DNA from: Rhizaria sp. SCN 62-66
Lineage: Eukaryota
Assembly (NCBI GenBank): GCA_001724265.1
Contig: MEDY01000057.1
Coordinates: 62,001-102,592 of the forward strand
Length of the DNA: 40,592 nt
Reading direction: 5' to 3'
This document shows positions 9,288-40,592 of the stretch, one piece after another. Numbering within the stretch: the first letter of the stretch is position 1; every line of letters begins with the position of its first letter. The translations under genes were made by a program, and so were the position numbers. A model generated the notes under the pieces. That model made no database searches. It was given only the letters and a program-made list of their open reading frames with translations, and was not told where the DNA came from.

Positions 9288-9422
9288 TAGTACGGTGGAT
9301 GTTTTTCACTTTATTTCTTAAATTAGTTATCATAATCTTTTGTTAATACTTGTACCTGGACATAATAAAATGCCGATTCCTTTCAAAATCCTTTCCATGA
9401 AAATCACCTCTACGACTCGATC

Positions 9423-12101
9423 TTACACATCCAGGGAATCGGCATGGCTTTCATCAATCTCCCCTACCTCGTCACGACTATTATTAATCTCCCCTTCTTG
9501 GTCATTAATGCCCACATCATCATATTCATCATCGTCCTCTTGTGTGTCTTCCTCGTCCTGCTCCGTGACGCGCTTCGTAAATCCAAGGTGCATCATGTAA
9601 TGATTCTGAACTGAGTTCCCCACAAAACATTTGTCCAGATGGAGGAAATTCTCAAAGCTACGCAGCAATTTGTCGTCAAAGGGTGTGGCACCATAGTCTC
9701 GATTGGAAGGCACGCCGCCGCGTACACATGATAGCACACGGCCGACAGGCACAGCGCCGCCCAACAGGCGTGCGGAACATGGCTTGAATGTAATGAACAC
9801 GGGGGTGTCGGACTTACCAAACCATTGGCGGCGCAGAAATTGTGCCGGGGTGACTGCGCGGGGATACGTCAGTACCGTACCGACAGGGTAAGTCACGTCA
9901 GCATCCGCTGCGGGCGCAGTAAACTCTCCAAAAACAAGGTCGATCTCCGGTATCGTTAGAGTCTTAGGAGCGCATGGTTCGGAGGACACGTTATTAAAAA
10001 GCGTAATGAACGGTAGATCAGCAATATTCAGGCCGTGCGGTGCACAACACCGGTGGACGTGAGTGCAAAGCGCGCCGGATACGGCTGCAACTCGGTAATG
10101 CGCAGCGTGGCTCGGAAAGCGTGTTTCGTCAACCCGGACGATCATCTGATACACTTCTGGCCAGGGGTCGTAGAAACCCACTTCCACCAACAAATCATCC
10201 ATGTCGTGCTTTGAATCAACTGTCGCCTTCGCATGCGCATGAATAAGCTCGCGGGCACGCGCGTGCTGCACCGCCAGCGCTGCAGCGGTCGGTGTGCCGC
10301 TGGTAGGCCGCGCTGGCAGAGGACGCAGCTTGTACTCGCGCACGTTCTCCTAGTACTGCAGTCGCCGTGGGTAGCCGTAGTCCTCAAGCGTATGTGCGAT
10401 GTACGCGTCGTGAGCCTCACGCCAGCAACCGCCGAAGGGGTGTGCAAATGCATGCAAGTCTGCGACAGTCTGCTGCATGTCTTCTTCCGCATCGACTGGA
10501 TCAGCAGCAGAAACTACGTTCAAATGAGTAAGTACCTCACGTAGCTGCGCGAGCTCCTGAAATGCGGACTCATTTTCAAGTAAGCAGTCGGCAAAGCGCA
10601 AGATGTCAAGCGATTGTGGCCCACGCTCCTGACGAAACATCTCGGCAAAAGCGACCCTGAGGCCTGGCACGTCATGCGTTGTAGTCACAACTGGGGAATC
10701 GTCATTCATAACGAACATGCGCCGCAGCACGCGCAGCAGCACCGCCACGGTGGACCCCTCTGCGCGTGTGTGGCGCAGTCCAGCAGCGTCACCGGGCCAA
10801 AGAGCAACTGCATTAAGCATACCGACACAGCCCCGGATAGCGTGGTTCTGGCACAGCAAAAATGCCATCGCTGCTTTGTCCTCAGCGGCAACCATTGTGT
10901 TATCATACAACTGGGCCAAGTGGCTCTGCACCTTCATGTCAGCGGGATATAATTCGATATTTGCTGGAATCATTAATGCAACGCTGGGTCCTGAAAGCAA
11001 CTCCTGCGCAAACCATGGGAGCGTTGCTCCAAGACGTGCCAGTAAGCCAGTCAGTGGCACATGTGATGACGGGTTCCACCGCTGCCGCTCGTTGACGATT
11101 GTGAGGAGTGAGGTCCGGCGCAATCCCGTGAATACGCTCTCAAGCGTCGCGTTGTCGAGACGCGACGCGCACTCACACAACATAGACACGGAGGAGACCT
11201 CGCCGCTAAGCGGGGAATCTGCGCGCAGCCTGCTCGCTTCAAAGGTTTGCAGCACAGTGTCGATTTGATCGTTGCGCGCAAAGGCGGCCGCAATGGCGTC
11301 GTCAGCGCGGAAAAGGCCGGTCAGCGCCCCGTAGACACTAGCTTGAATCGCAGCGTCTTCATCCGATATCGTTGAGTGCATTTGCAGCGCCTTCTCCAGC
11401 AGCGGCACGAGCGTGGCCACTGTGTCGGAGGGCGGGGGTGCACCGTGAGAGAGCAAAGCAGACACTGCGGCGCAGAGAGTCTCGATGTGCGCGTACACCT
11501 CGCGCTCAGCCTCCCAAAATCGGCCCTCCTGAGTCCAGTCCGTGTCATTTGGTTGCCGCTGCTCGCGCATTTTCCGCCGCTTCTTCTTTGTTGCCTCGAG
11601 TTGCATTTCCGACAGCTCCAGGTTCCACTGCGCGTAGGTCAACACGTGCGCTAATGCGGCGTGTCGGACCTGGTCGGACAACGCAGGTGACTGCGCGACG
11701 CCGCTCACCACGCGCAGCACGCGTTTTTCCAGCACGTTGCCGGGCTAGTCGGACAGCAGGGCAGCGACCCGTTCGAGAGCGGAGCCAGCGGCGATCGAGT
11801 CGCAGCCAGCAGCGTCACGGTGGATGTAGTGGTGCTGTACGTTGGCGATGATTTCGAACACTTTGAGGACACCATCAGTGCGTCGGATCACGTCAACATC
11901 GGTGTCTGTCGGAAGCTGGAACACCCGTGACAGCAGCTCAGTGATAGCATAACCGTGCGTCACTGTAACTTCGTGAGTCTTGAAGTATCGGTCCGGTTCA
12001 GTAATCGAGGCCACAAGCGCCGTGAGATCGGAAAGGTTGGTCGACAAGCCCTGCACAACGGCCATCGCCACATGAACCTGCCTAAGCTCATAGTCGTCCA
12101 T
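9423..12101 (-). CDS. Uncharacterised family X protein, paralogue 1 (892 aa): helical ARM/HEAT-like N-terminus plus His/Cys-rich C-terminal domain; 2 in-frame TAG
   Basis: ORFs 11745..12116, 10350..11735 and 9423..10343 share one frame and are separated only by TAG at 11747-11745 (LLSD*PGNVLEK) and 10352-10350 (RRLQY*ENVREY). The ATG at 12101 (MDDYELRQVHVAMA) lies at about the same position as the paralogue starts; stop is TAA. The joined protein aligns along its length with the paralogue at 37543..40200. Confidence 0.85.
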
Positions 12102-12947
12102 CGCGCGCTCGTGCAAAACCCATGCGGGCTCGTTCGTGCTTTGTGTAGGGCTTTATGTCAGAATCAATAACAACATCAAAAGATACGACCATAACAATGA
12201 CACTGTTAGATTGCATAGGACTCAGACGAATAAGAATTGTTGAGACTACAGAGAAATGTGGTAATACTAAATGGGCCCTAGAATTTAGTTTGTATATTGA
12301 TTTACACGCTGTCAGAGTTTCAGTTGTAGAAAATCCTCCCAAAAAACTGTCGCAAACTCGACTTCGTTTCTACCACATGTCATTTTTGTATCACTAGACT
12401 TTGGCAATGTTGATTGCGTGTCTCAGTGATACCTTTATATACATCGATATAGTTAACTTTTATTGGTGTATAACGTGCTGATCATTTTTGATTTAGTGTT
12501 GATTTTAACGTGGAGTGATATTTGGCAAGCAAATTCCTCATATGTATGAATTTTAGCGAGAATTCATGAATCTTCCCCGACTATATGTACCTCTACGCGA
12601 GTTTTAATAACGTGAATAGGTTTTGCCTCAGCTCTAAACAGTGGATTTATTAAGGTTACACGCTGGAACCACTGTTCTATAAGCATATCCTTCATAATTA
12701 CATCCCACCACACGCGGTTTTGAAGTTGCCACAAATGGTCCACGTCGAGTGCGTGCGAAGTTTCGAATAAGATTTCGCTGCGAATAAGTTGTTTATGATC
12801 TTTTGACGTTGGGCATCTCAACTTTCAGAACTTTTAAAGTATGTGCATATATTATATTTCTCTGTCGGGAATGCATAGCATGAAGTCTAGACAAGACTGA
12901 CAGACCGACGTCCCACAATCTCTTTTCATACTTGTGATGTAGGCAGG
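12102..12947. promoter_or_regulatory. AT-rich divergent intergenic region, probably a shared/bidirectional promoter region for X1 and gene B
   Basis: 846 nt of AT-rich sequence between head-to-head start codons (12101 -, 12948 +). No specific element identified. Confidence 0.5.
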
Positions 12948-15900
12948 ATGGAGAGCAAGCGCGATGCAAGTGCATGGGACGGCGTCGCGAGCTTAAATTC
13001 TGTTCGCCGAAACATTAATGATCTCACGCCTGACCTTCGGCTCGACGTCAAAGATGTTCGGCAAGCTGAGAAGACCGCTGTGGCTGGCACGGCGGCTCTG
13101 ACCCGTCCGTCGGCCGGCCCGTCGCGCGCCGACGTGGACGCCGCTGGCAGCGAGACCCTCGCCGCAATCGCGTCCTCCATCGACCGCGGAACCGTGTTTG
13201 CCCGCGTTGCCGCCCTCCGCAGTATCCTTGCCCGCTCTTCCTCCGACCACACCCATACCTCATCTGCCTCCGCTGACAACGCGTCTCTCAACGTCGGCGG
13301 GGGCGTCGACATCGACACTCTCTTCCCGGGGCTCTTCGCGCCCGTCGCGACCGCACCTACCGCGAGCGCCACGTCCGAGCCGACCACGCACTCACCTGAC
13401 TCTGCTCGGAGCTCTATCTCTGTTCCGCCTGTTGTTAGCAGCCACCCTGCGGCGCCGTCGCTGCCCGCCTGTCTCCGCGGCGCGCTCCCCGGTGCTGCAC
13501 TGAACCTCTACGACTTCCGCTCGGGCACGCTCCCGCAGGGCGCCTCGGTAGGTTTCTCCACGCCCACGCACCCTTTACTGCGTCTCTGGCTCAACCTTCC
13601 GCCCGTCGCCGCCAGCACTCACGCTGCGACTGCAACTGAGCCTGGCTTTGTGATCATCGCCGAGGCCCGGTGCGCGGCGCTGCCGCAGCAACCGCTCCCG
13701 CTGCTCGCACTGCATCCCGCCTCTGCACCGCTGCCCGCGCTCCACCCCGCACTGCCGTCGTCGTCCACCCCTGCTACTACCGACACATCATCCCAGTCTA
13801 CCGCGACCGCGAATGCGGCGGACAGCGCACTGACCCGTGCGCTGCCCGCCGCGGCCGCAGACGACGTCCCCGCGTCGCTGCTGCTTGACCCCACCGGCGT
13901 CCTGCGCCTCGCTGGCCCCGCCGCCTCCGCCGGTCTCAACACACTGACCGCAGGCGCTAGCGCTGGCGCGGGCGCGGGCGCTGGGAAGATTACCGCAGGC
14001 GCGGGCCGCATGCGCGTCGGCGCCACTCACCGCATCGCTCTCAGCTGCATTCCCGTCTCCGCTACCGCGGCCTCGACCTCTGCCGCTGGCGCTGCCACAG
14101 GCGCTGTGACTGGCGCTGTCACGGGCTATGACGTGACGCTGGTGGTCGACGGCGTGCCCTGTGGCGCCGCGCGTGTGCCCGCCTCTGCGCCGGGTCGTCT
14201 CGCCTCACTGGGCCTCGCGCTCGACTTCGCTATCCGCGACGCCGCCACCAACAGTACCGCCGGCAAGCCCAGCACCGCTCGCGGCGGCGGCGGTGGCGGT
14301 GTGGGGTCGGGCGAGGTTGCGCTGCGCATGGTGACGGTCGCGCGCGCCACGGGCGCATCCGCCGCTGACACCGCCGCCTTTGCCTCCGCGGCCCGCTCAC
14401 TCGTCTTTGGCAGCGCCACGCCCCCCGCCGTGGCCGCCAGCGGGTCTGCAGGCGCCAACGCCGCCGCCGTGGACGCTGTGGCCGCGGGCGCGGTCGCCGG
14501 TCTCGACGCTGCGGCGACGGCGGACCCGCAGCTCTTCGCGGGTTTCGCGCTGTCTCCGCTGTACGACCGCCCGCCACCACTGTGGGCGCACCCGCTCTTC
14601 GTGCGCCTGCTGCTGCCGGCGACGGCCGCGCCCGTGGCGCCGCATCTGGCCACCGCCGAGCTGGGCAACTTCGGCCGCGCACTCGTTCTCGCGCTGCGCG
14701 GCATGCTCGCCGCCGCTGGGCCGCCGCCCGGGGATGCAAGCACAGCTGTTGCGCTCGCGCCCGCGCACGCACACGGCGCCGGCGCGCGTATGGCCGCCGC
14801 CGCTGCTGCCCGCGCCAGCGCCAACGCTGGTTCCGGTGCCGGCGCGAACGGCGGCTCTGCTGGTCCGGGTCCCGCTGGCGTTGTCGCTGGCGCTGGTACT
14901 GGCGCCAGTGACGGTGCGACTGCGACTCTGTCTCCGCAGCACGCGCCGTCGCCGCTGCTGTCGGCGCTGTCTCCGCTGCGGCGCGCAGCTCTGGCATCGG
15001 TCGTCGCTGCCTTCACGCGCGCGGCCGGGCTGTTCCGTACCGTCGCCGCGGCGGGCCAGACGGTCGGCGCGCAGACCCAGTACGGCGGCGCGCTGGCCGA
15101 GGCCGTGGCGGCGCTGGGCGAGGGCGAGGCCGTCGTGCTGCCTCTCGCGCTCTACCAGCCCGGCGTGCGCGACGGCACTACACCCCACACGCTGCCGTAC
15201 CTGGTCCTCGCCGAGCGCGGCACCACCAGCTCGAGCGACCTGTTTACGGTCACGCTCGTCAACGCCGCGGTTGGCACGGGGCTGCTGCACCACGCCTGCG
15301 ACGTGGCGACCCCCGAGCGGCCGCCGCGGTACGAGCTGTCCTTCCCGGTAACGCGTGTGCCGCGTCACCGCGCCGTGGACCCCGCGTTCTGGTTGCTGCT
15401 CGCCTCGCTCATCTGGCCCCTGCGCGGCGCCAACGCGGGCGCGCTGGCCCGGGACGCGCTGTACACCGCGGCGCTGCCCGCGCTCGCTGGCCGGCCGCTC
15501 GCCGCTATCGCAGAGGCCGCTGAGGCAGACCTCGCACAGGACGCCGTCGCCGCCTCGGGCTCGGGTGTCCTGCAGCAGTCCGCCGCCGCGTCCGCTGCTG
15601 CGAAGTCTGAGGTTACCGCGGAGTCGCCCGATGACATCCCTGCCGTCATCGCTGCCACCGCCGTCGGCGTCGCTGCTGCAACTGCGACGGTGACCAGTGG
15701 CGATGACGGCCCTAGCACGCTGCTGCCTGCGCGCGCCGCGGCCGCCGGCGCCGCCGCTGGCCAGCGCGTGCTGCAGCCCTCCGCGCTGCCGCTGGGCCCC
15801 GGCTGTGCGGCGGCGCTGTGCTGCGAAGCCCTGCGCTTCTTGCTTGCGCACCGCGGGTTCAGCGCCGCCGAGACCGCACTGGTGGACCTCGCGCTGCGGT

Positions 15901-18900
15901 GCCGCGTGCTGCAGCTGGTCCACAGCGACATGGCTACGGCACACGCGCTCGCCGACGCCGACGCCGCGGCCCTGCACGCCGGCGCCCGCAACGTTGCCGC
16001 CGCCGCGCTCACGGTCGCCGAGCCCGCCGACGGCGCGCGCCCGCTGCTGGGGCTATCAGCGCTGCACGTCGTCACAACCTCGCTCTGCGGGTTTACGCGC
16101 CTGATCGAGCGCGCGCTCGAGCGCAACGGCGACCGCGCCGCCGCCGCCGTGCCCGCGGCCGTGTACGGCGACGACGGCGGCCGTGCGCGGAGTTCGCAGA
16201 ACTCGCTCGTGCCTTTCCTTGCCTCGCTGCAGCCGCCGGCGCTGTCGGTGTCAGCGCTCGAGGGACCAATGCAGAGCAAGCCTGCAACAATGCCGTTGGA
16301 TCTGACCCGCCTCACTGCCGGCGCGCCTGTCCGCACGCTCGCCGCCGCGCTGGACGCGCTGCACGCCGTGGCCGAGGCCGTGCTGACAGCGCGCCAGGAG
16401 GGATTCATCCAACTCGAGGACCACGTCGTGATGGCGATTGTAACCCACCTCGTCACGCACGTGCTCCCACTCCCGCGCGCGCGCTTCTCACCCCTCACCG
16501 CGGGCTCCGACGAGCGCACCAACGCACATACCGTCTGGGACGCGCCGATGACGCGCGCGCAGCAGGCCGCCGCCGTGGCCTCGGTGTGCGTGCTCGCCCA
16601 CGCCGTGCGCCGGTCTGCCTCCACTCTGCCACCGACGCCCGCGTTCGAGGCGCAGAAGCTCATCGTGGCGGGCGCGCTCGTGGTGCTGGCCGACAGCGTC
16701 ATGCGCCGCTTCGCCTCTGACTACCCGTCGCCGGTGTCGCACGCACTGCTCTCGCAAGGCTTCGGGCCGTCGCTGGTGGCGTTCGTCGAGCAGACGATGA
16801 CAACGCTGGCCTTCACGCCCGAGCTGCACCTGCTGCGCGGACACATCATCCAGTATGTTGCCGACTGCGGGGCCCGCAAGCCCATTTTCGTGCTCAACAA
16901 GGGTCAATACGGCTCCGTCTGTGGCGACTTTGCGACGGCCGTGGCGCAGAGGGCCGGCGTCATCGGTAAAAGCAATGAGAACGGCACTTCGTTCCAGATG
17001 TCACTGCTCATGACGGGCGAGGAAGGCACCTCGCTGTCCTTTGTCCCCGAATTCATGCCCTACCGCGAGGTACTCACGATCTTCTCTTTCCTGCAGTACG
17101 ACGTCACCGCGATGGCTGAGGCTGACACCATCACTCCTCTGACGCGGTACGGCGCCAACGTAACTGACGGACCCACGTTGCGTCTCAAACCCTACTCGTA
17201 CCTCAGCATTAACCAACTCGCGCGCAAGAGCAAATTCGCCTCCGGACTCTCTGTGGCGCAACTCCTCACTGCGAACGCTAGCAATGCGGCCACCGCTGGC
17301 GCTGGCGGTGGTAGCGACGAGAAGGATGGCAACGCGACTGCTGTTGCCTTGGCCCCTGTGGTCACGACCGAGACGGACCTGCTGCACGTGCCGCTGCTGC
17401 CGATGTTCGACTCGACGCTGCGCCAGTCTGACGCCGAGCTCTTCCTCTCGTACCTCACGGTGCCATACCTGCGGCTCCCGCTGCTGCTGCAGTTCTTCGC
17501 CTCTGACGACCGCATCCAGGCGCTGCGCTGCGCCGCTCTGCGCGACACGCTTGAGGCCGCGCTGTTCGAGCCCGGCGCGGCGTACGCGCCCGCGGACCTG
17601 CTTGTCTGCGCGCCCGCCCGCTGCACGCGCCGCGCCAGGCCCGTCGCGCCCGTCGGCTGGGAGAGCCACGACGAGGACGGCAGCGACGACTCGTCCGACA
17701 GCGACAACGCCGACGGCCAAGACGGCGCGGGCACCGCCCTCGTGGCAGCGGCGCGCGGCGCTAAGAAGGTGCTCGAGTCACCGTACGCGCTCGCCACCGC
17801 CATCAACCTCGCTGAAGCTCCGCTGCGGCGCCCCGACGGCACGTGGCAGCGCAGTCTCGCGCGCAAGCAGCGCGCCGAGGCCGCCGCCGCCGTCGCCGCA
17901 GCGGCCTCTGTCGGCGCCGCCAGCGCGCAAGTCCCAATCGCGTCCCCGGGCGCTCTGACGGGCGCTGCGGCGGGCGCTGCGACCGTTGCCGGCGCCGACA
18001 GCGGCGCGACTGCCGCCCCTGGCGCCGCAGCACCTAGCGCTGCCTTTACGAGTCCCTACGGCGCGCTGATGACGGAGCTGCGGCACGCGCCGGGCCCGCT
18101 GTTGGCGTGCGTGGCGGAGCTGGTGGAGCAAGCCACGCGGCTCGACACGGACTCCGTCATGGGCGGCTCTGTGGCGACGATGCTCGCCGTGTTCCGCCTC
18201 GCCGCGCAGGTCGAGGGCTACGCGGGCGCCGTTGTCTCCGCGATGGCCGCGGCCGCCGCGCTGCCGCCGCAGGCCGAGATGCCGGCGCCCGCGCAGACGC
18301 GCGCGCTCGCCGCGCAGCGGTGCTTCGAGAGCCGCAGCGGCGACGGGCTGGCGTGGTCGTGGGCGTCGTGGTCGGCGCTGCCAGCCACCGAAGCCTGCGC
18401 GCATGCACTGCGCAAGGGCTGGCGCGCACTGCGGCAGCTGCTGCGGCAGCGCGCGCTGCCGATCCTGCTGCAGTGGGCGAGCCAGCTCACGACAGCGTAC
18501 CGCGCGCTGCTCTCGGACAAGGGCGCCGCGGCGGGGGGCGCGGATGGCGGCGCCGCGGGGGCTGGGACGGCCGAGGCGAGCACGTTCGTCACGAGCCGGC
18601 GCCGTGCGGCGCTCAAGAAGCTTCTTGAAGAGCAGAAATCGATGTTTGACACGATTGACTGCATGAGCAAGGACAGTCGCCGGATCAAGAACGCCTCGAA
18701 CAAGTCTCTCTCGCGCGCTGAGCTGGAGCTGGAGCACTGCCGCTTCATCAAGACGACTGACCGCGAGCAGCGCGACGACGAAGCGGGCGACGACCTTAAC
18801 GGGGACCCGGAGCCCGCGAAGGGGCTTGGGGGTCAAGCCCATCACTCGATGTCCCGGCATGCCGCGCGCGCCTCGCAGGCCGGTGGGAGCTCTGGTGCCG

Positions 18901-24900: not shown

Positions 24901-27035
24901 CGCGGCGCACGCGCCAGGTCGCCGCGGTGGCACGCGAGCTATCGGCGCTGACTGCGATGCTGTCGATGTTCCGCAGCTCGACTGTGGTGCTGATGGACGA
25001 GGTCGACATGCTGCTGCATCCGCTCAAGTCAGAACTCAACTTCCCCGTTGGCTCCAAGCTTCCCCTGGACTTCACGCCGCTGCGCTGGCAACTCCCCATG
25101 GCGCTCATCGACGCCGTGCTGCTCGCCGCCGACGCCGCGGGCGCCGCCAGCGCTCCGGTGAGTGGCGCAGACCCTGTGCTCGAAGGGATCGTGCGCGTCG
25201 GCGTGGCCCAGCAGTCACTGCAGCTGTCGCCGCACCTCGTGCTCCTCGACGTGCCGTACTTCTTCACTGCGATCGCTCCCGCACTTGTGGCCGTCGCGGC
25301 CCGCTTTATCGCGGCGCACGCCCCCAGCCTCGCCTCTGGCTCACTCATCGCGACCGTGCGCAAGGTCCTCGTCGTCACCGTCGCCACTGCCGCTGCCGCC
25401 GCGCTCTCCGCGAGCCCCGACGCGGGCATTGACGCCGCTGGATCTATCGGCACCGAGGCGCCGAGTGCGGAGGAAGTTGCGTTTTTGAACGCGCACGGCG
25501 CCGAGGCTGACCTGAAATTGGTGTCGCTGGCGCGCGATTGGCTCACTCGCTACCTCCCGCACGTTCTGCAGCGTATCAACCGCGTTAGCTTTGGGCTGCT
25601 GCCGCGCCACGCCGCTGGGTTTGCGCCCGTTGGCGGCGCGCACGTTGAAGAAGAGGAAACGCGACTGCACCTGGCTGTGCCTTTCGTGGGCAAAGACCAC
25701 CCGTCCGAGTCATCCGAGTTCGCGCACCCGGACATCATCATCGGACTGACGTACTTGGCGTACCGATACGAGGGGCTCCGCACCGGCGACGTCGCTGACG
25801 CCGTGACTGCGCTGCAGCGCGCGGCCGAGCAAGAGGTTGGGCCCGTCGCTGCGCGCCCCACGCAGCGCCTCTACGCCAGCTGGATTGCGGACACCGGTGC
25901 CACCATCGCGGGCGCGCCGGTCGCGTCCACTGCGGTCGCTTCCCCCGTCGACCTCGCGTCGCCCGGTGTGTCTGTAGCTGAGGAGAACGAGGAGTCTGAG
26001 AGTAGCGTCACGGTCGTGCCTCTGCGCATGGTCAAGGTGTCGAACACGGCACACGTGCGGCTGCTGCATGGGCTCTGGTCTCGCTTCGCGCCTGCAGTGC
26101 GCTGGCACCTTGACTCGTTCGTGTTCGCCGAACATGTCCGCTTCCAGGCTCAAAAGCTCTCGGCCTCTGGCGTCGACCTCGGTGGTGACATGCTCTTCCG
26201 CGCTCGCGCCGGTTTCTCCGGCACACCTTCGGACGTGCTGCCTGCCGAGCTGGGCCGCTGCGGCTACGAGCAGGGCACCGACGGGCGCGTGCTCCGGGTC
26301 ATGACCGATCCGCGCCACGTGTCGGCCACGGCCTTTGGCGCCGACTGGTCTGTCACGTCCGTGCTGCGCCACCTGGCCACTGCGCGCGACCCCGCGACGG
26401 GAGCACCCGCGTTCCACGCGCTGATCGACACGGGCGCCCTCATCACCGGGCTGTCGAACCGCCAGGTTGCCGAGGCGCTGCTCGACGCGGGCCTTGCGTG
26501 GGCTGATGGCGTTGTCTTCCTCGATGCCAACGACCGCGCCGTTGTGCTTCTGCGCGCGACCGGCCGTGTCGTCGCCCTCGAGCACTGCGGTCTGCCCGCG
26601 GAGCGCCGTTTTACCTTCTACGACCAGGTCCACACAGTCGGTATCGACATCTCGCAGCAAACAGATGCCGTGGCCGCACTGACTGTGGGCAAGGACATGA
26701 CCTTCCGCGACTATGCGCAGGGCGCTTACCGCATGCGCGGGCTCGGCAACGGCCAGCGCGTCCATGTGCTGCTCACACCTGAGGTCCGCTCGCTTGTCGC
26801 ACGCAGTCTGGGCTCGCATGCGCTGCAGGCGAAGGGTGCGGTCGCTGTCACCGCTCCGAGCAGCAGCGGAGCCGCCCTTGTTGTGGATATTTCGGTCACA
26901 TTGCGCGACCTCTCCGCGTGGCTCGTGCTGCGGACGGCGGAAATGGAGGCGCTGCAGTTCCAGCAGCTGCGCCGGCAAGAGGAGGCGCACGCCGCGCAGC
27001 GCAAACCGGTGTACCTCAACTACATCCACAATAGC

Positions 27036-27084
<49 letters not shown>

Positions 27085-30000: not shown

Positions 30001-32189
30001 GTGTGGTGCCCATCGGTGCGAATCTCGCTGCCCCTGACGTTGAGTGGGTGGGTCCTACCGCGCCGGGCAATGAGGGCCGCGCGGGATACGTCCGCTGTGG
30101 CAAGTTCGGCGGGCTGCGTATCGCAATTCCTGCAATGCCCCCTGTGTTAGCGCGTAAAATCGTGCGTGTTAAGAATCGCCCCCGTCTTTCGATTGAATTC
30201 TCATCAAGCAAAAGGGATTACTACCACAACTCCCCGCCTTCGAGTGACAACGAAGATGATGGCGCGGCCAGCCCTCTTGTTGTTCAATCCCTGTCCAGCA
30301 TCTCATTCACCTCTCCGTTCCTGACCGCACAGTGGGACGGCTCCGGACCTAACACACGGGGTGTGGGCGCAGCTTCGGCGGGTGTTGATGTGGAAGATGG
30401 TGATGCACCTTGGCGCGGCATGACTGCGCGTGAAGCTGCCGTTGCGCGCGGACTGTGCAGCAAGAGCATTGCGTCAGAGCGCTCGAGTGCGCAACTCACC
30501 GTTGACTTCCGCGTCGTGCGGCGACTGCGAGCAATGCAGTTGCTCGAGCGCAATGGCAGCGACGATGACAACGACGGTGACAATGAAGCTGGTGATTCTG
30601 ACTTTGAGGACGACAACAGCGCTGTCAGCGAGATTATCACAGCGCGTGAAGCAGAGATCACGGACATTGTGAACAACGTGTCTGAAGATAGTGAACACGT
30701 TTGCAATGAAGTGCTCGCTTGGCGCAAGGAGATGGCTTTGCAGCCTTTGCTGACGCTTCTTGCCGGCTCCCAGTCGCTGGCTGATGCTGCAGGGAACAAG
30801 ATGGTGTACGCCAGCGGCAACTTTTTCGGCCTCTCCCGCGACGGCTTCGTCTCCCCGGGTGTCTCCAACCTGAGCAGCTTCTACAAAGACTTCATGGAGC
30901 GTCAGGCGAGTACCGTGACTAACGCATGTGGTGGTGCAGAGTCGGATGTGGGCAAGGCGCTCAAGCAGATGATCGGCAAGAAAACGGCGTTCTTGCCTCT
31001 GCCGTACCTCAACGCATTGGTCCCGTCGTCAGCGGCGCCGAAGAACGACGCAGAGCTCGGTTTGCCCCTGGCAGTCGCAATGGGCAACAGCGCGCTTGCG
31101 GCCCATCTGTGCCGTGGCGGCTACTCGCCCGCTGTAGCACGTGGACGCTTGGCAGAGCTGTGTGCGCGCGCGCAGAGACTTGGTCTGCCGGCGCCGCTGT
31201 CGAGCCCGGAAGACTTTTGGACGCCAGCCTTTTTACACTTGTTTGGCCGCGAATATCGGTCGTATAGTTCGGCCGTCGGTAGCTTCCTCAACGGGTTCAA
31301 CTTCCGGTGTTACACCTCAAGCAAGGATTTGGATCCGTGCAAGAACCTGGTTGAGGCTACGGGGCCCTACTTGGACCGTCCGGGCGTACTGCACAACGCC
31401 GCTGATGTCGGTGCTGAGGCGGCGGAGACTGCGCGCGCGGCGGGCAAAGACAACGATCTCACTTCCCCGACACTCCACTTCAACACTGAGGGCTGCTTTG
31501 ACCTGGGTTGGAGTCCCGCGCTGGGCTACGCGGTGGACGCAAAGGGGCTTGCACGGTGCTACGGAAAGATGCGCCCGCGTTTCGGCGAGCTTCACGTGCG
31601 CCGTGTGCGCTTTGTCGTGACTAATTCTCACAGTGGAGATCGTGAAGATGTTAAAGATGCCTTTGAGCCGCTGTACTGTGGCGGTGCCTCTTTGCCTGGT
31701 GTTACCCACACTGATTCACGTGACGCCACGCTCCCTTGCTTTAGCAACAATGAAGCCCATCGTGTGCCTGTATCTGAGACCGTGCCCGACGCGGGGGTGC
31801 TCAAGGCTGCGGGTGCACTGGACACCACGCTGCGTGTGATGGGGCTTTCGCGTGAGCATGTCAAGTGGTCTTGCGCTGTTTGCAACCACGCCAACACACG
31901 TCACCAGCCCAAGATGAGCGGTCGCACCGTGCGTGCGTCTCTCGCACAGTTGGTGCAGAGCGTCGCCAGTGGTGCCCCCCTCTCTGACGGACTGGCGCTG
32001 GGGCGCGACATGAAGACCGGCATTGCGTCGCACGCCAACGTCCTCTTCAACACTCTTCTGACGCACCCCGAAGCGGGTGCGGGATCTGCTACGCAATGGT
32101 CTGAGCGCGAACCGTTTTGTGGGATGTGCGGCGTCTCTTATAGCGAGACTCTGCGTTACGCGCACGCCTTTAACAACAAAACGCAATAA
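12948..32189 (+). CDS. Giant DUF3638/DUF3645-containing SF2-helicase-like NTPase (gene B, 6413 aa) with EF-hand and C-terminal split Cys4 zinc finger; 1 in-frame TAG
   Basis: ORFs 12948..27821 and 27918..32189 share one frame; the only interruption is TAG 27819-27821 (AAEREA*REHERQAQHRLERFTDSGYTRAFDTETPWQC). Similarity to gene A continues across it (EMV..acidic stretch..PW, then RRLHNVVIAVDW vs HRLHNVNIVAEW, and VTLREAESLR vs LTLAEAAGLR). Motifs: QMIMGAGKTTVVGPL (~24528), DEVDMLLHP (~24996), AVPFVGKDHPSESSEFAHPDI (~25675), GFSGT (~26211), QGAYRMRG (~26718). Ends at TAA. The start at 12948 is assumed; an upstream exon is not excluded. Confidence 0.87.
27039..27083 (+). repeat. (GCT)15 perfect trinucleotide microsatellite encoding poly-Ala
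   Basis: 45 nt of uninterrupted GCT, in frame in gene B. Confidence 0.95.
28326..28361 (+). other. Canonical EF-hand Ca2+-binding loop in gene B
   Basis: LFALV-DADGSGDLNVAE-TTRLL fits D-x-D-x-S-G-x-L-x-x-x-E with flanking helices. Confidence 0.75.
31866..32129 (+). other. RanBP2/NZF-like zinc finger split by a long insertion
   Basis: WSCAVCNHAN, then 74 aa, then CGMCG; the family consensus is W-x-C-x2-C-x3-N-x6-C-x2-C. Confidence 0.5.
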
Positions 32190-32467
32190 TTATTTTCCGT
32201 GATATATATCTGACCAATGTCTGCTAGAACAGTCTTCTCAGAATTCTAATTTATTTTTAAACGTTCCACCTGTGACTCTTGTGCTGCAACCTGCAACAAT
32301 ACATAATTCGTGGGCGGTTTTTTTCAAAATTTGTTGTTTGAGCATCGATAGATGTAGGAAATGTACGATGGATACTTTTTGTTCGAACATATGATTTTGT
32401 GTATTGTGTATTGTACACCTCGTTGTAAGCGGAGAGCAGTCTGAGGTTGCTGTTGATTAAGTTATTA

Positions 32468-34954
32468 TCATGTGGGGATGAAAGATGAAAAATCCATGTA
32501 GGATACCTTTCCTGTCTCAAAAACGGAGCATTTCTTCGTCATACAGTGATTTTTAAAGCATCGCGTCACCACATCGTCAAAGGGTGGCGCACCAGTGTCA
32601 CTGGGTTCCGGACTATAGCCTGGCACGCACGACACCACGCGGCCGACGGGCACAGCACCACGCAATAATTTCACAGAGCATAGCTTGAAGACAATAAATA
32701 ACGGGGACTTGTTGGATGCAAAGCCTTTGCCCCACTCTGGAGCGACTGCGCGAGGATACATCAGCACCGTACCAACCGGGTAGGTCGCACCGGCGTCAGC
32801 CACAACCTTAGCGTAGTCGTCATACACAATGTCATCATCGGGCAGCGTGAGCGGCTTAGTGGCGCAGGGAACACGGGAGCTGTGATGGTACAATGTGACG
32901 AACGGCAACTCGGCCGCAGATTGACCCGGCGGAACAAAGCACTGATGCACATAGTGACCCAGAGCACCACCCATAGCCGCTGCGCGGAAGTGAGCGGCGT
33001 GATATGGGAGCTGGTCATCGTTGAGACGAATCAACGTGCAGTATTGATGGTGCGCCCGTGTCTCTGCGTTGTAAAATCGCGAATTGAAAACCACATCAGA
33101 CGTCATTTGCTCCCACCCAACCATTTGAAGGGCATAAGAAAACACATGCTCCCGTGCCTTAACCTGCAACAACTTATGTACGACAGCAGACGGTACATTA
33201 GCGACCCGCTCTGTCTGTCCACGGTCGTCAAGTGGTGGATATCCGCTCTCCTCCATGCAACACGCTATGTACGCGTCAAACGCTTCGAGCCAATTTCCTT
33301 CGGAGGGCTATGAGAATGCGCGCTCATTGGCGGCAGCTTGCACAATCCGCGCCACATCATCATCCGCAGTTGTTAACTCGGAACAAGTTGAGCTCTGGCT
33401 CTCGAACAACGCACGCAGATGCGCAAGCTCCTGCCACGCACGACCGTTCCGCTCTTGAAGCATGCAGTCGGTGTAGCGAAGCAACGAAAGCAATTGTGGC
33501 ACGCGCAACTGGATGAACTTCTCCGCAATTGAGATCCGCATCGCAGAAACATCAATACAATCGCCAAGGTCGTGCAAAACCTTGCTAGGTGTCATCATCG
33601 CGCGTAGCACGCTCAACAACTGCATCACTGTCGCAATGGCTAATCCAGAAGACTTATGACTAGCCTCCACAATGTCATCATTTGTAGCAACAGGCTTGTT
33701 GCACCGGAGTGCCGCAACACTCAGTTGAAAGGCACAAACTTGTTCTGCGCCGACGACGATGAGCTTTTGCGCTGCGTCCTCTGTTCTGTCTTTTGAGACA
33801 GAGATCAAAACAAACTGTTCCAGGAGACGTACTGTCTCGCGGTGCAAATCAATGCGATCTTTGATAGAAGAGTCTCCATAAGCCTTAATAACACGCTTAA
33901 GGAGACTGCCAAGTTCATACTCTGAGTCAAAAAGCTGCCGCGAAAATTCAGGAAGACATTCAGTCAGGCGCGCCAACAGCCCCACGAGAGGCGTGAGCAG
34001 CACTCCCCACTAGGGCTCATCAGAGGTTTCGTCGGTGTTCATAAGAAGATTGAAGATAATCTCCAGGCGTTGTGGGGTAAAGGCAGTCACAAGCGTGGCG
34101 TTGGAGATTGAGGTCGCGCACTGATAAAGCAGGCGAAGAGAGTGTAACTGGGCGTCCGGGACAAACGACTTGAAGATGCATAGATCATGCAGCACCAAGT
34201 CCAAGGCGGTGCTCATTAAGAAGTCAGTGATAGCGTTACTGTTTGCGGGTAAAACGCAAAACAGAGTCCTGTATATTGAAACCCGAACAAGATGATTGAG
34301 GTTGAGGGAGGTGTCATCCTAGTGGCGCTGAAGCATGGAACGCAACAGGGGCACAAAGTCAGCTAGGATAGCGGAGGGCGCAGGGGTGTGCGAACTGCAT
34401 AAAGAAGACACAGCGTCACAGAGCATCGCATGATAGTCGTAAATAATGGGATACTCGTCAAATCTATTCTAATGGTGCCGCTGGCGCATGTGGGAAAGGA
34501 TATATCCCAACGTGGTGTGCCTGGCGAGTTCTGGGAGACGAGACGACTGCGAAATCCTCTGTACAAGCCTGAGCATGGACAGAGACATTCGCATGTTGAA
34601 GCATGATGAAATTAGTTTTCCTAGTCTCTCTACAACGCTGCCTGTGGTTGCGAGCATTTCGCAGCCCAGTGTATCGTGTGCCATCAACAAGAACAGTTGA
34701 ACGAAGCTGTCGAGATGTTGCTCACTCTAGCTGAAACTCTCTATCCCACTGGCGTCGATTGGGAGCATCTGCTCAAGAACTCCGGCAACGCCACTCTCAA
34801 GCAATATCACAGTTGCCAACGGTGTTTCGTAACGGAAGCGAGTCGCGGTTGTTAGTTCGCTCAGAGCGGTCGAGAGATTTGAAGACTCAAGAGCCAACAC
34901 TTTTGCGAGTGCCGACTGGAGTTTATGGATAGAGTTATACTGGCGAGTGGACAT
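32468..34954 (-). CDS. Uncharacterised family X protein, paralogue 2 (828 aa); 5 in-frame TAG
   Basis: One continuous frame from ATG 34954 (MSTRQYNSIHKLQSAL) to TGA 32470-32468 (followed by TAA TAA). Interrupted only by TAG at 34729-34727, 34471-34469, 34321-34319, 34012-34010 and 33310-33308. The hand-translated gaps match the paralogues (MLCDAVSSLCSSHTPAPSAILADFVPLLRSMLQRH vs TLCAAVSALLSHGAPPPSDTVATLVPLLEKALQMH; WLEAFDAYIACCMEESGYP vs WREAHDAYIAHTLEDYGYP). Confidence 0.85.
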
Positions 34955-35619
34955 CTTAAGAAGTCGCAAAAATTGCTCAACGTCGGATTATAAGAAGTGA
35001 AATAACTTTTTCAGGCTTATGTGGCTGGGACTGGACACACCTACAAAGCGAGTGGGAGACAAAGCAAAAACACAGATTTGCGATTAGGCAACCAGTTGGG
35101 AGTATCGGTCTATACGGCAAGCTACAATCAAATCCTAGCTAGTGAATAAAAGAGTTTAATACCAATATGTTCAAAATAAACGCAGGGTAATTGATGGGCT
35201 CTAATGACAATCAACTGATTGCGCAGTAGCTATTCAAAAATCGTGTTGTTAGCTCGCTCCTCGGAGCTTCTTGTCAACCACAAAAGATGTCCAATGTACA
35301 CCACGTACGTGTGTACATGGATATGCAATATCTCGAGAATAAGGATGCGAATGTCTTTAAAATCGCACAGAAACAAAGTTTATGTTGATTGAAATATGAT
35401 GGAATCTAATATTACAACTCATACCTTGCATATATCTCGTCATTGACTTGAAGAAATTTGTAAGACTGTTATATGTGTCACGCAACGTGATCACTGCCAC
35501 ACAGATGCTAAATCGAATAGATTGAATTGAAGTTGTTACGCGCGAATTTTTACATAAAGGGACTCTCTCACAGGAAAACCACAGAGAAACGGCACCCAAC
35601 GACCTACCAAGCTCCGGAT

Positions 35620-35785
35620 ACAAGGGTGGTGTTTTCTGTGAACACACAGAAGGATTCTGTCTTTAAGTGTGTGTTTTCTGTGTTTAAAGTATATGTTATC
35701 AGCATAAAATTAGAATTTTATGTATTTAATTGCTTATTATTTACACAAGAAACACCACTTTTGAACACAGAAACACCACCTTTGG
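35620..35785. repeat. Imperfect nested inverted repeat (foldback/MITE-like) in intergenic DNA
   Basis: aagggtggtgttttctgtg (35622-35640) is a near-inverted copy of cacagaaacaccaccttt (35766-35783). An inner arm aagtgtgtgttttctgtgtttaaa (~35665-35688) pairs imperfectly with tttacacaagaaacaccactt (~35740-35760). Central perfect hairpin: cataaaat-taga-attttatg (35703-35722). Confidence 0.55.
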
Positions 35786-36161
35786 ACACAGCGAGGGGAA
35801 TACACACCCGGCCGTCTTAGTTACCGTCTCACATGCTTTTTATGTAAAATGTCGTGCGTCACAGAAGTTGTCTTAAAAAACTTGTGTAGTCGCTTGGAAA
35901 CTGGCATGAAAGAGTTTTAAAGCAGACTGTTGGGTCAGAAGAGGATGCAGTTGCGACACCGGCGAGGTAGAAGTGACATTACGTTACGGATGGACAGGGC
36001 CGATTGAGCGTGCTATCATATGTATTGATATGATGCTGATGAAAAGGAAAGATCGGTGCCAATGCGTGTGACTTGAAGTTATTATGTGCCTAATGCCAGA
36101 CCGCATGCTGTTGAGTCCATCATGTGTGAGCTGAAAAGTGGATAGAAGAGCGAAAATCATG

Positions 36162-36790
36162 TTAAAAAGAGCGGAGCTTGGCAGTCGCACCCAGCTGCTT
36201 GAAGTCAAGCTCAGAAGCCTGAGAAAGCTGAGGCGTAATGCCGTAGACGCCGAGAGTCCTCTTGACGGCCTGGAAAGAAGAGCCCAAGAGCATCTTGGTG
36301 CGGACGGGGACGCCGGTGTCAGGGCACCACTTGAAGAAGACAGGGCCAGAGAGCTCGCGAGCAGCGTCGTCGGCGTCAGTGTAAAGCATGTCGACTACGA
36401 CAAGGCAGGCGTCCTTGGAGTACTTGTTGTTAATCGTCTCGACGAGGGGTTCCCAGAACTTGGAGACGAAGTTGCCAGCGTTGACGTCGTCAGTCTCGGC
36501 GTAGGCAGCAGACTCCTCGGCAACGTCAATGGACTCGTCCTTGATAACAAAAAGGGCCCAGAAGGGAAGGCACTCACTCTTGTTTGCCTTCTTGTTGCGC
36601 TTAGCGATATCGTGGAACTTCTTCGCAGCGGCCTCGGTAATATTCAGAGAAAGGTTCTGTTTCGGGCAAAGAAAAACAAGAAGATAAGAAAATTTGAGCA
36701 GTGCAAAGAGTGGCATATGGGGGTTGTACTTGCTTGAGTGTAAATGCGTTAAAAAAAATGCTATTGTCATGTACTAACCGCTATTGACAT
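36162..36790 (-). CDS. ADF: ADF/cofilin family actin-depolymerising factor (about 168 aa; exons 36790-36779 and 36656-36162)
   Basis: ADF-H signature: ACLVVVDMLY...PVFFKWCPDTGVPVRTKMLLGSSFQAVKRTLGVYGITPQLSQASELD (consensus F..WCPD.A.VK.KMLYASS...LK..L....Q.....EL). Ends at TAA at a normal cofilin length. The first exon (MSIA) is inferred from splice signals. Confidence 0.88.
36657..36778 (-). other. Probable phase-0 spliceosomal intron (122 nt) in the cofilin gene
   Basis: 5' site GCG|GTTAGT; AT-rich body; polypyrimidine tract ttttcttatcttcttgtttttcttt, then gcccgaaacAG|AAC. Splicing preserves the frame. Confidence 0.7.
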
Positions 36791-37542
36791 GTCACATCCA
36801 ATCATTTCACTCGAAATCACAGTCAAACTCGGTCTGTCAAGAGTAACACGAATATGAACAAAGTGAGCATAGCACGTACCATTGTTGTAGATATAATAGA
36901 TCCTTCGATATTACTTTCTTAACGCAAAATGTCAAAATCGACTGCAGCTTGAGCTCACGCCTGCGAGTATAACTTGCCTGTCCCTCATCCAGTGTAAGGG
37001 GCTTGATGCATGCACACCGCGCGCCGAGCGCACGCAGACCACACGCCGAGAAGAAAATCAAGTACACCCTCCTTATATGTTGAATTTTTAAGTTTTGGGC
37101 GTTCATTTCTGATAATAACACTCTTTTCGCTATTATTTGTTCTCTTTTATCAATTCACAAATATTGGCATCATTCTCAACTACATGGTGCTACGCAATCT
37201 GTCAGAAGTCAAATAATATAAGCAAGTGTATGTACAATTCTAAAAGAAAAGAAGATGGATCTTATTTTGAGTATTAAAATACTATAAAAAAGTGCAAGTC
37301 TGTATAATCCTATTTTATCGAATAGGCGTTCAATTTGCACATGTTTGGTCGGTGTCAACACAGACCGCCTTGGTAAGGCTCACTCGAACAAGTATAACCA
37401 GTGCACAATAATTGAAAATAGAACGGACACTTTGAAGCAAAGAAAAAAGACGCTAAATAGTCAAGAAAAAAACTCGCATCATGCAATCTGAGAATAACAA
37501 TGCATTATTGTTGTGTTAAGCATCCCAATGAAAGCATGTTGC

Positions 37543-40200
37543 TCATGACTGCGACTCAAAGTATGGGAGACCAATCTCAGACCACCGCTCAGCGTCATCA
37601 TCGTCACCGTCATCGCCGTTCGCTTTGCCACCACAGTGGTCCGCAGCGGCGAGCGCGTCAAAGCAAGCAAGAATGGTGGTGTCGAACAGCAGGCTTTCGG
37701 CGGTGCGGTCTCGGCCGCGGTTGAGGGCGTCGACGCGCTCGTCCGGCCCGTCTACATCCCACTCACCCATAACTGTGCACGACACCACGCGGCCGATAGG
37801 CACCGCGCCCGGCAGCAGACTCGCCGCGCACGGCTGGTACACGAGGAAAGTGGGCAGATCGCTCGCGCCCCAGCCGCCAACGCGGGGCGCAGGCCGCACG
37901 GACCACGGCCGCACCAGCACCGTGCCGGGCGCGTACTCGGCGTCCGCCGCCACGGGCGCGTGCTCGCCGTAGACGATGTCGTCGGACACCGGAGCAATGG
38001 GGCCCTCGGCGCAGGGCGCGCGTTTGCTGTGGAGCGTCAGATACGGCAGTGCGGCCCCCGCGGGCTGCCCTGGCGGGCGGAAGCAGCGGTGCACGTACCA
38101 CCCCGTGGCGCCGCGGGCAGTGGCCGCGCGGAAGTGCATCGCGTGGCTCGGCAGCCGCGCGTCGTCGGGCGCGATCAGCAGCAGGTACGCCGCGCGACTC
38201 CTGTTGACAGGGTTTAGCAAATCCGTCTGCAAAGCAACGTGCGACGTCGCGTCGGTGGGGTCCATCGTCGCGTGCGCGTTCAGGATCACGCGCTCGTGGG
38301 CGCGCGCCTGCAGCAGCGCCAGCGCAGCGGCAGACGGCGCGCCGGCCACACGCTCGGGGGCCGGGTCCGCGGCCCACGCGTCCGGGCCCACGTTGCGCCC
38401 GCGCCGCGGGTGGCCGCCCTCCTCGAGGCTGCACGCCAGGTGCGCGTCGAACGCCGCCTCCCAGTCCACGCTGCCGTCCTTGGTAAAGGCGTGCAGGTCC
38501 GTCACCGCGGCGCAACGCTGCTCATCACTGATCGTCACAGTCGACGCAATATCAACAATCTTCAGCAGTGCCAGGAGCTGATTAAGCTCCTGCAAAGCAG
38601 GGCCATCTTGTTGTGTGCACGCGTTGCAGCGCAAGAGGTCGAGCAGCTGTGGCCCGCGCGCCTTCACAAACGCCGCGGCAACTGAGCTGTCGCCCACTGC
38701 AATGAGCTGGCGCAGCGCGCGCAGGATGTCAGTCATATTGCTCACAAGCTCGGCGTTATCGTTACCGCCAAGAACGTCTCCGCCAAACACGGCCGCGCTG
38801 AGTCCAACTACGCAGCACTCAACCGCGCCGGGCTGCCACAGCTCCTGCGCTCCCTGCGCCTGCCCCGCCCCGTCAGCACCGTTAGCGTCGTAAGTGCCGC
38901 TCGTCGTGTAGTCCTGCGTGGTAGCGAGCCGGCGCCCGACGTGGCGCGCGCCGATCGCGGCGAGGTCAACCTGCAGAGCATAGCGCGACTCGGTGCTCTC
39001 CTCGAGCATCTGCATCGTCTGAAAGAGCACGCCGCGCTCCAGGAGCTGCCCCGCGAGCGCGGGCGAAGCAGCTGCGAAGCGCGCGAGGGCGGCGTGGAGC
39101 GCTGCTAGAGCGGTGTTGATTAGCCGCGCCCAGCGGTCTGGCGCGGCATGCGCAAGCGCCACGCGCTCGGGCGTAAAAACGCGCGCCAGCGTCGCGGCCG
39201 GTAGGGCGGCGACGCGAGTCATCACTTCGACGAGCGCCTCGGACGGGTGCTGTTGGTTGTCCTCCAAGTCGAAGCGGCCGAAATCGTCGTTGCGGAATAG
39301 CATGCGCCAGGCAAAGTCAAACATCCCGCCCTCAAACACAGCCTCAATGCCGGCGCCGGCAGTGTCTGCGGGTGCGACAGCGTTTGCGAACGCGGCCGCC
39401 AGCGCGCTCACCAGCGCCCCGCGCATGGCGCGGTGGCGCTCAGTGTCGCAGGCGAAGTGCGCAGCGGCGCGCCGCAGCAGCGGCAGCAAAAGAGCGCCCG
39501 CAGTCTCGCGCGGCAGCGGCGGGCCGTGCTTCAGCAGCCGCGCGACAGCGCGCAGACACTCAGAGAGAGCATTCTTGAGTTCAACGAACGAGGGGTGATC
39601 CTCAGGCTCCTTCTCAGTCAGCTCATCCTCGTCCTCGTCATCACCGCCGCTGGCCGTGGTGTCATCCTCATCTTGGTCCAAGTCAGTGCTGTCACCGTCG
39701 GCCGGTGGAATGCAAGAAAAGGTCTCGATCGCGTAAACGAGGCGCGCGGCAAAGGCGAGCAGCGCGCGCAGGCTGGCGACCCGCTCGGCGACTGGCAAAA
39801 CGCCGCCGGGGTGCGCGTCGGCAATCATGCTGGCCAAAGCGAATAGCTGTTCTGAGTGCTCAGAAGCGTCGTCGTGTTCGACGCAGCCATAAAGCACCCC
39901 AGCGGCGCCGCGCGCGGCGAGAGCTTCGTAAGTAGGTGGGGAGATGCTGAGCAACACCAACACGTTTAAGCTGCCCGCGCGCATCGAGTACGCGGTGCCG
40001 TCCATGCCGCGGTACGACTAAAGCCACTTAACCAAAAGCCAATATGCATCAAGCTCGATGCACCCAGGGGTATGCCTCCGGATGATGGGACGCGCTCGGT
40101 GGAGCACTAAGTGTAGCGCGCGCAAGTCACCAACGCTAGGCGACAGCGACATAACCCCCGCCAGTGCCGCATGAAGAAGGCGGCATTGCTGTGGATTCAT
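37543..40200 (-). CDS. Uncharacterised family X protein, paralogue 3 (885 aa); 1 in-frame TAG
   Basis: ORF 40018..40200 (MNPQQCRLLHAALAGVMSLS, similar to the X1 start MDDYELRQVHVAMAVVQGLS) joins 37543..40005 in frame through TAG 40020-40018 (LLVKWL*SYRGMDG). Stop is TGA. Shares GPQLLDLLR, QELNQL, DLHAF, W..AFDA and the C-terminal domain with X1/X2. Confidence 0.87.
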
Positions 40201-40592
40201 CGAAATTCAACTAAATACACACATTTAGCAAAAACGCCCGCTCAAACACAGCAACCAGCTTCATATGATGACATGAAGCGAACAGAGAGAGATTAGAATA
40301 TTGCGAAGTGATGGTGAATGAAAGGAATGTCTGAAAGTGTCGGTATCACCATACACACAAGTTTTTGAAAGAAGGCATAAGGATATCACGTAGGGTAACA
40401 CAAATAGATTGCTTTATACTGGTTGCACGGTCGAAAACGGTGGTTGTGCGCAAAAACACGGCAAGGAAAATTGCCCTCAAGGGTCCCTGTTGTCTCACAC
40501 GGGGGTCGCGAATTGGGCCGTTTGCCTCTCCCACCCCACATGTTTGTGATGTTGAGGCACCCCCCATCCCCAATAAACATCCCTAGATTACC

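Follow-up and report, generated by a model that had tools for sequence, protein, structure and literature searches.

UAG as a probable sense codon, with UAA and UGA as terminators, in an uncultured eukaryote from wastewater communities

The window analyzed here, the whole 40,592-nucleotide stretch of contig MEDY01000057.1 (assembly GCA_001724265.1, Rhizaria sp. SCN 62-66), contains six genes, four of which are interrupted by in-frame TAG codons and by no other stop codon. UAG is probably decoded as an amino acid in this organism, with only UAA and UGA ending translation (rough probability, 0.76). The reading is developed below from the genes of the window, from related loci in metagenomes, and from contigs of independent sequencing runs.

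Genes of the window and their in-frame TAG codons

The six genes lie on alternating strands with short AT-rich spacers between them. GC content is 32 to 46% in all six spacers and 52 to 69% in coding sequence. The genes, with their open reading frames (ORFs), are as follows.

3 to 9287, plus strand: giant gene G1, 3,094 codons, 5' end beyond the window; DUF3638 and DUF3645; no in-frame TAG; terminator TAA
9423 to 12152, minus strand: family gene W_A, 909-codon ORF with two in-frame TAGs; first ATG at about 12101; TAA at 9423 to 9425
12948 to 32189, plus strand: giant gene G2, about 6,413 codons from the first ATG; DUF3638 and DUF3645; one in-frame TAG; terminator TAA
32468 to 34987, minus strand: family gene W_B, 839-codon ORF with five in-frame TAGs; first ATG at about 34954; terminator TGA
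36162 to 36692, minus strand: ADF/cofilin gene; domain without in-frame TAG; terminator TAA
37543 to 40206, minus strand: family gene W_C, 887-codon ORF with one in-frame TAG; first ATG at 40200; terminator TGA

W_A, W_B, and W_C are paralogues (identity to W_A, 33% for W_B and 30% for W_C) and are referred to below, with their relatives, as the family. The nine in-frame TAGs of the window are the following.

10350 to 10352, minus strand: W_A, ORF residue 601
11745 to 11747, minus strand: W_A, ORF residue 136; also present in metagenome contig L001 (100% identical)
27819 to 27821, plus strand: G2; the same frame is open for 1,455 more codons
33308 to 33310, minus strand: W_B, ORF residue 560
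34010 to 34012, minus strand: W_B, ORF residue 326
34319 to 34321, minus strand: W_B, ORF residue 223
34469 to 34471, minus strand: W_B, ORF residue 173
34727 to 34729, minus strand: W_B, ORF residue 87
40018 to 40020, minus strand: W_C, ORF residue 63; the homologue L005 (81% identical) has CAA (Gln) here

An earlier, sequence-only reading of this DNA had placed nine in-frame stops at these coordinates, and inspection of the sequence found all nine there and in frame, appearing as CTA on the plus strand where the gene lies on the minus strand. Its further statement that none of the six genes ends in TAG also held: the ends are TAA at 9287 and 32189 on the plus strand and at 9423 and 36162 on the minus strand, and TGA at 32468 and 37543 on the minus strand. 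Once TAG is read through, the four interrupted genes contain no internal TAA, TGA, or change of frame, again as claimed. Under the standard code these four genes are broken, whereas reading through TAG turns them into single ORFs of 909, 6,460, 839, and 887 codons. As a control, reading through TAA or TGA instead adds only 1 to 9 codons to real genes, and only TAG merges genes.

The G2 read-through ORF spans 12807 to 32189 (6,460 codons) and includes two TAGs before the first ATG in addition to the internal one. In-frame TAGs just 5' of a first ATG were seen in two places, namely, those two in G2 (12876 to 12890) and one directly before the ATG of the ACP gene (L002, 2504 to 2602); they are read as lying in 5' leaders and not in coding sequence. 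Similarity between paralogues, which had been said to run straight through the TAGs, does so for the eight in the three family genes but not for TAG 27819, upstream of which the BLAST similarity between G1 and G2 ends. The continuity of G2 at that position is argued instead from the 1,455 open codons that follow and from unbroken coding composition, as both flanks have a GC content of 62 to 65% and the coding pattern GC1 > GC2 < GC3 at the three codon positions, without a spacer-like dip.

Across the 59 kb examined in total (the window plus the metagenome loci described below), all 13 gene ends are TAA (nine) or TGA (four) and none is TAG, the end of the aminopeptidase gene being tentative. 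Tandem terminators were observed at two ends: in G1, TAA is followed by TAG (9285 to 9290), and in W_B, TGA is followed by TAA TAA (32462 to 32470).

TAG usage, selection, and rival explanations

A scan of metagenomes with the family alignment returned seven loci, two of which are pieces of the window and five of which are new paralogues (L002, L004, L005, L006, and L007); L005 and L006 share 81 to 85% DNA identity with W_C. In-frame TAG occurs once in L002, twice in L005, once in L007, and not in L004 or L006, and no in-frame TAA or TGA was found in any of them. Half of the ten long ORFs are from the window and half from metagenomes; together they contain 13 TAGs and no TAA or TGA in 16,152 codons, with TAG present in seven of the ten. 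At 0.08% of codons, TAG is comparable in number to the rarest sense codons, AGA (18) and ATA (22). For TAA and TGA, 44 and 38 in-frame instances would be expected from positional base composition, versus none observed for either.

The share of TAG expected among one-step nonsense mutations was calculated from codon content under 12 combinations of transition bias and GC-to-AT bias. It amounts to 0.55 to 0.60, this high value arising because CAG, GAG, AAG, and other precursors of TAG outnumber those of TAA and TGA in GC-rich genes, and the corresponding probabilities are 0.005 to 0.010 for nine TAGs out of nine and 0.00045 to 0.0014 for 13 out of 13. The exclusivity of TAG is significant, yet much weaker than the naive value of (1/3)^9.

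The TAG-bearing genes are under purifying selection. W_C and L005 each have lineage-specific TAGs close to the 5' end; for this pair, the ratio of nonsynonymous to synonymous substitution rates (Ka/Ks) is 0.35 over 832 codons and ranges from 0.23 to 0.47 in the individual 200-codon blocks, all of which lie downstream of the TAGs. Ka/Ks is 0.40 in both comparisons with L006. None of the seven TAG-bearing genes contains a frameshift, and seven of the eight family genes consist of a single unbroken frame.

The placement of the TAGs was compared with a conservation profile built from 76 family members, none of them from the six TAG-bearing family genes. The 12 TAG sites within the family have a mean profile information of 0.118 bit, compared with 0.487 bit for all 5,066 sites (P = 0.00025), and the bias persists against 673 one-step precursor codons (P = 0.0006) and against 357 CAG, GAG, and AAG sites (P = 0.00115). 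The 39% most conserved sites hold none of the 12. Neutral lesions would ignore conservation, so this avoidance argues that the genes are not dead, and a position at unconserved sites is expected of a translated codon that has recently been entering genes through mostly nonsynonymous mutations. An array of pseudogenes would be marked by mixed stops, frameshifts, Ka/Ks near 1, and lesions at random positions; the TAG-bearing genes display none of these. The four independent lines of evidence, TAG exclusivity, purifying selection downstream of the TAGs, avoidance of conserved sites, and a coding composition that continues across TAG, make translation of UAG the most likely explanation, with UAA and UGA retained as terminators as the sequence-only reading had proposed.

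Sequence matching the window is present in public bioreactor, wastewater, and activated-sludge metagenomes; among the runs listed, which come from eight studies, 14 of 16 hold part of it and four hold at least half of its words. Contigs of three DNA runs (X1, X3, and X4) and of a poly(A) metatranscriptome (X5) were aligned to positions 26000 to 40592, a range that contains seven of the nine TAGs and lies outside the two of W_A. The X1 contigs reproduce all seven TAGs with no differing letter, one 8.5-kb contig spanning six of them, and the contigs of X3 and of X4, which belong to two further studies, reproduce six of the seven in each case, likewise with no differing letter. No contig joints fall at TAG sites in the DNA runs. 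For W_A, database proteins of public assemblies break off at residues 135/145 and 600/604, which correspond to both of its TAGs. The RNA run yielded 20 contigs, and the eight listed fall in G2, W_B, and W_C, none of those listed spanning a TAG. The studies behind the contigs date from 2015, 2017, and 2025, and the contigs match the window almost letter for letter, with no difference over 8.5 kb in X1, which suggests a clonal lineage widespread in engineered wastewater systems.

Several observations weigh against translation of UAG. Twelve of the 13 TAGs fall in one fast-evolving, lineage-specific gene family, while the cofilin gene and, on neighboring contigs, the ACP gene, the aminopeptidase exons, and the intact part of a P-type ATPase gene contain no TAG, and none stands at a conserved housekeeping site. 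The excess of TAGs in W_B (Poisson P of about 6e-4) means that this gene could in addition be a decaying copy. In G2, BLAST similarity to G1 stops at residue 4740, 265 residues short of TAG 27819, and a word-based homology search with G2 residues 4750 to 5350, which include that TAG, found no match and so no homologue bridging it. A truncated ATPase copy containing a TAG indicates that broken genes do occur near this family. Locus L006, from a different metagenome, has a single frameshift at nucleotides 462 to 471 and no TAG, and may be either a real pseudogene or an assembly error. Finally, near-identical, clonal-looking assemblies make the three studies amount to fewer than three independent observations.

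W_B also stands out in other respects: five of the 13 TAGs lie in its 828 codons, its GC content (52%) is the lowest in the family, and two of its TAGs are located inside short insertions specific to it.

The standard code could account for the data if the TAGs were recent nonsense mutations in decaying or dispensable family members and in a dispensable tail of G2, with CAG, GAG, and AAG as the commonest precursors. Such an explanation gains from the 55 to 60% share of TAG already expected among nonsense mutations, from the five TAGs of W_B, from the truncated and deleted ATPase copy that adjoins a family gene, from the L006 frameshift, and from the alignment of TAG sites mostly with Gln, Glu, and Lys, whose codons are one-step precursors. 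It is nevertheless improbable: all 13 in-frame stops are TAG (P of 0.0005 to 0.0014 after rounding), no frameshift accompanies them in seven genes, Ka/Ks downstream remains at 0.35 to 0.40, and avoidance of conserved positions (P of 0.0003 to 0.001) is unlike neutral decay. Seven of ten long genes would have to be pseudogenes in a compact genome, and G2 would have stayed open for its 1,455 codons past a stop.

About equally improbable is a partial reassignment, in which eRF1 would still recognize UAG weakly and near-cognate or low-abundance suppressor tRNAs would read through it, the mixture of full-length and truncated products being tolerated in weakly constrained genes. The rarity of TAG, its concentration in a family with relaxed constraint (Ka/Ks, 0.35), and its occurrence at hypervariable positions even relative to ordinary Gln, Glu, and Lys codons are consistent with such a state, the last of these fitting non-conservative or mixed insertion. 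A codon that still worked as a terminator should sometimes end genes in a GC-rich genome, yet none of the 13 ends is TAG, and W_B would require five successive read-throughs. The base following TAG (C in four cases, G in five, A in two, and T in two) provides no read-through context.

It is very unlikely that the TAGs are removed before reaching the ribosome, by small in-frame introns or RNA editing. The organism may have spliceosomal introns with a 3' TAG, as read by eye in the aminopeptidase gene, and the two TAGs within W_B-specific insertions could be viewed in that light; every TAG, however, lies inside one continuous ORF, where introns would shift the frame about two-thirds of the time, at least eight TAGs align with a paralogue residue without any difference in length, no AT-rich dip is seen at 27819, and the DNA contigs have no joints at TAG sites. 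Sequencing or assembly artefacts have a negligible probability and found no supporting point, being refuted for seven TAGs by letter-identical contigs of three studies (7/7 in X1 and 6/7 in both X3 and X4) and opposed in W_A by the database proteins of other assemblies cut at exactly the TAG positions, which are the sole check for TAG 10350.

Residue, mechanism, and organism

The proposed code like translation table 15, with UAG encoding Gln, is one possibility among several, as the homologue codons are mixed and the profile control was unable to single out Gln. At the three TAG positions of W_C and L005, the nearest homologues have CAG, CAA, and GAG (Gln codons in two of three), and column counts in three alignments rank the residues differently, as Ser/Glu/Lys, Glu/Lys/Gln, and Glu/Ala/Ser. 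The nearest database homologues are hypervariable at the TAG sites. A Codetta-like sum of profile emissions over the eight TAG sites in match states gave Glu 0.58, Ala 0.19, and Ser 0.18, with almost no power at sites so variable; when control codons from equally unconserved sites are treated in the same way, the method calls Ala for nearly all of them and rarely calls true Gln correctly. A conservation-matched control does not separate Glu, Ser, Lys, Gln (0.10 quantile), and Leu (0.066). Exclusion of Leu, which lies 6.0 log units under the best residue, was dropped after this control, in which 6.6% of matched Leu controls scored as low or lower. Tyr, Trp, Ala, and Arg are unlikely, and Gln and Glu are the best guesses.

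UAG would be read by a tRNA with anticodon CUA that does not read UAA, and CUA has been described as the sole anticodon with that property (PMC5304391). Recognition of UAG would have been lost by eRF1. The reassignment may be young or weakly efficient, given that TAG is rare, located at fast-evolving sites, and concentrated in a fast-evolving family, as would be expected had all sense TAGs appeared by mutation once the code had changed. ARAGORN found no tRNA of any kind in the window and five loci (59 kb), and no eRF1 was seen among the ORFs read in the same 59 kb, in which no search aimed at eRF1 was made; both absences are counted against translation of UAG. At the gathering threshold, Rfam gave no match, and thus no rRNA, in the window and loci.

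The window is read as nuclear DNA of an uncultured, compact, GC-rich cellular eukaryote from wastewater and bioreactor communities. On neighboring contigs of this organism lie genes for an ACP extended at its N terminus, for the P-type ATPase, and for an ERAP1_C-type aminopeptidase. The aminopeptidase gene (L004, 3180 to 5104, minus strand) occupies two or more reading frames, and the AT-rich GT...TTTGTAG stretch between its pieces, read by eye, points to short spliceosomal introns in the organism. PMC13524828 describes proposals of alternative codes for some metagenome-assembled genomes (MAGs) of giant viruses. An origin from a giant virus was considered and rejected, since cofilin, an ACP with a presequence-like extension, an intron-bearing aminopeptidase gene, and the lack of viral matches argue for a cellular source; no relative of the family was found in the viral contigs searched. 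The GTDB genome contigs likewise contained no family relative and no exact match to a 48-base stretch of the window. Among EukProt-derived entries, no close relative was found.

Relatives of the P-type ATPase in metagenomes are 51 to 96% identical to it, and the best named sequence among the matches listed is from Salpingoeca helianthica (EukProt; 42%). In a FastTree phylogeny of 40 sequences, chosen for their names from the 120 matches listed plus cluster members, the clade of the organism lies on a long stem beside S. helianthica and a metagenome sequence; this is a single gene of patchy distribution, and no placement is drawn from it. P0261, labeled as a protein of a Myxococcota MAG, was found to be a regular bacterial ATPase rather than the product of a mis-binned contig. 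The truncated ATPase copy (L005, 2665 to 3530), which adjoins the L005 family gene, lacks residues 1 to 374 and 448 to 729 of the full-length protein P0153 and changes frame at the junction (L005, 2883). In the remnant upstream of the junction, a TAG stands opposite the Glu of a GEG motif (Glu in five of six relatives and Asp in one). Database entries exist for proteins of about 650 residues that begin immediately past the junction, which suggests that the same truncated structure may be present in other assemblies. The truncated piece looks like a pseudogene remnant and was not used as evidence for the residue.

Both giant genes exceed the curated Pfam cut-offs for PF12340 (DUF3638; 31 bits) and PF12359 (DUF3645; 25 bits), with scores of 47.2 and 42.3 bits for G1 and 87.9 and 48.1 bits for G2. 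A Pfam search with W_A, W_B, and W_C found no family, and a word-based homology search with W_A returned no near-length match. Members of the W_A family pair a solenoid of the armadillo type with a C-terminal beta domain in which His, Cys, and Pro-Gly motifs are conserved. The family comprises 137 clusters at 50% identity, the ten looked up being unnamed and all from metagenome assemblies only. An AlphaFold2 model of the intact member L004 (predicted local distance difference test [pLDDT], 83.7; predicted template modeling score [pTM], 0.86) consists of an alpha-solenoid of about 700 residues followed by a beta-rich C-terminal domain. Among PDB structures, Foldseek ranked a designed ARM protein (4rv1; E = 5e-5) and chains of importin-alpha as the best matches of this model. 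Its C-terminal beta domain was unmatched. By resemblance of the modeled fold only, the TAG-rich family is predicted to consist of armadillo/HEAT-type repeat proteins.

Two stretches of the window, 35253 to 36226 and 40123 to 40592, have a summed contig depth of up to about 20 times that of their flanks in the three DNA runs (812 and 663 versus about 34 in X1). At about 35557 to 35863 and 40493 to 40500, contigs break off or continue into other sequence. These stretches look like multi-copy elements, the second of which probably ended assembly of the contig. No internal repeats were found in 34900 to 40592, and Rfam gave no match over 34950 to 37560 at E <= 1.

A more ambitious interpretation, possible but rather doubtful, is that the organism belongs to a deep lineage of eukaryotes, as yet unsequenced and common in wastewater reactors, in which UAG alone has been reassigned at an early stage to a residue other than Gln or Leu, with Glu favored. 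If so, a nuclear code in which UAG encodes Glu while UAA and UGA still terminate would be without a described counterpart, and the limitation of TAG to unconstrained sites would be a snapshot of a freed stop codon re-entering genes. A reassignment at such an early stage, with sense TAGs scarce and at unconstrained sites, could help separate codon capture from ambiguous-intermediate models. In practical terms, gene callers split the genes of this organism at TAG, leaving its proteome fragmented in public metagenome catalogues.

Comparison with known nuclear codes

Very few nuclear codes treat UAG and UAA differently, the reports cited here describing two non-ciliate cases and a few in ciliates (PMC5304391, PMC11687900, PMC10553269). 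A literature search for such codes found none described from wastewater eukaryotes or from GC-rich non-ciliates, and a further case of the latter kind would be an independent data point on the co-evolution of release-factor specificity and suppressor tRNAs.

In Iotanema spirale (Fornicata), UAG alone is reported to have been reassigned, to Gln, with UAA and UGA as stops (PMC5304391). The present organism is similar in that only UAG occurs in frame and UAA and UGA terminate, UAA being the commonest end (9 of 13); it differs in that Gln is one candidate among several and in that it has an ACP and comes from activated-sludge and bioreactor runs. Iotanema is an anaerobe without classical mitochondria. 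An ACP and an aerobic-sludge habitat would seem to fit poorly with kinship to it. The other non-ciliate case, the rhizarian exLh (Sainouroidea), is described as using UAG for Leu with UAA and UGA as stops, with 384 UAGs in 71 genes at conserved Leu positions (PMC5304391). The two organisms share reassignment of UAG only, termination by UAA and UGA, and an uneven abundance of UAG between gene classes, and kinship with this Leu-coding sainouroid may exist. Unlike exLh, the organism described here has 13 TAGs in 16,152 codons, all at unconserved sites.

Among ciliates, phyllopharyngeans are reported to have reassigned only UAG, to Leu or Gln, and to retain UAA as the preferred stop (PMC11687900), both of which are paralleled here. 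The contig of more than 40 kb with multiple genes, the coding GC content of 52 to 69%, and the giant intronless genes are atypical of ciliates, from which this organism differs in base composition and contig structure. The oligohymenophorean ciliate PL0344 is reported to use UAA and UAG for different amino acids (PMC10553269). UAG and UAA thus have separate meanings in both organisms, the difference being that UAA is also sense in PL0344, whereas here TAA is absent in frame from all 16,152 codons and ends nine of 13 genes. The residues for UAA and UAG in PL0344 are said to be Lys and Glu, and UAG encoding Glu would match the weak profile call obtained here.

Codes in which all three stops are also sense have been reported in Condylostoma, Blastocrithidia, and Amoebophrya (PMC4967479, PMC12153298, PMC6394959), and the present case resembles them in having a stop codon that is sense inside genes. 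A context-dependent code of that type was considered and rejected, given that TAA and TGA are both absent in frame and that reading through them adds only 1 to 9 codons. Set beside these systems, the organism of the window is a plausible candidate for an independent origin of UAG reassignment.

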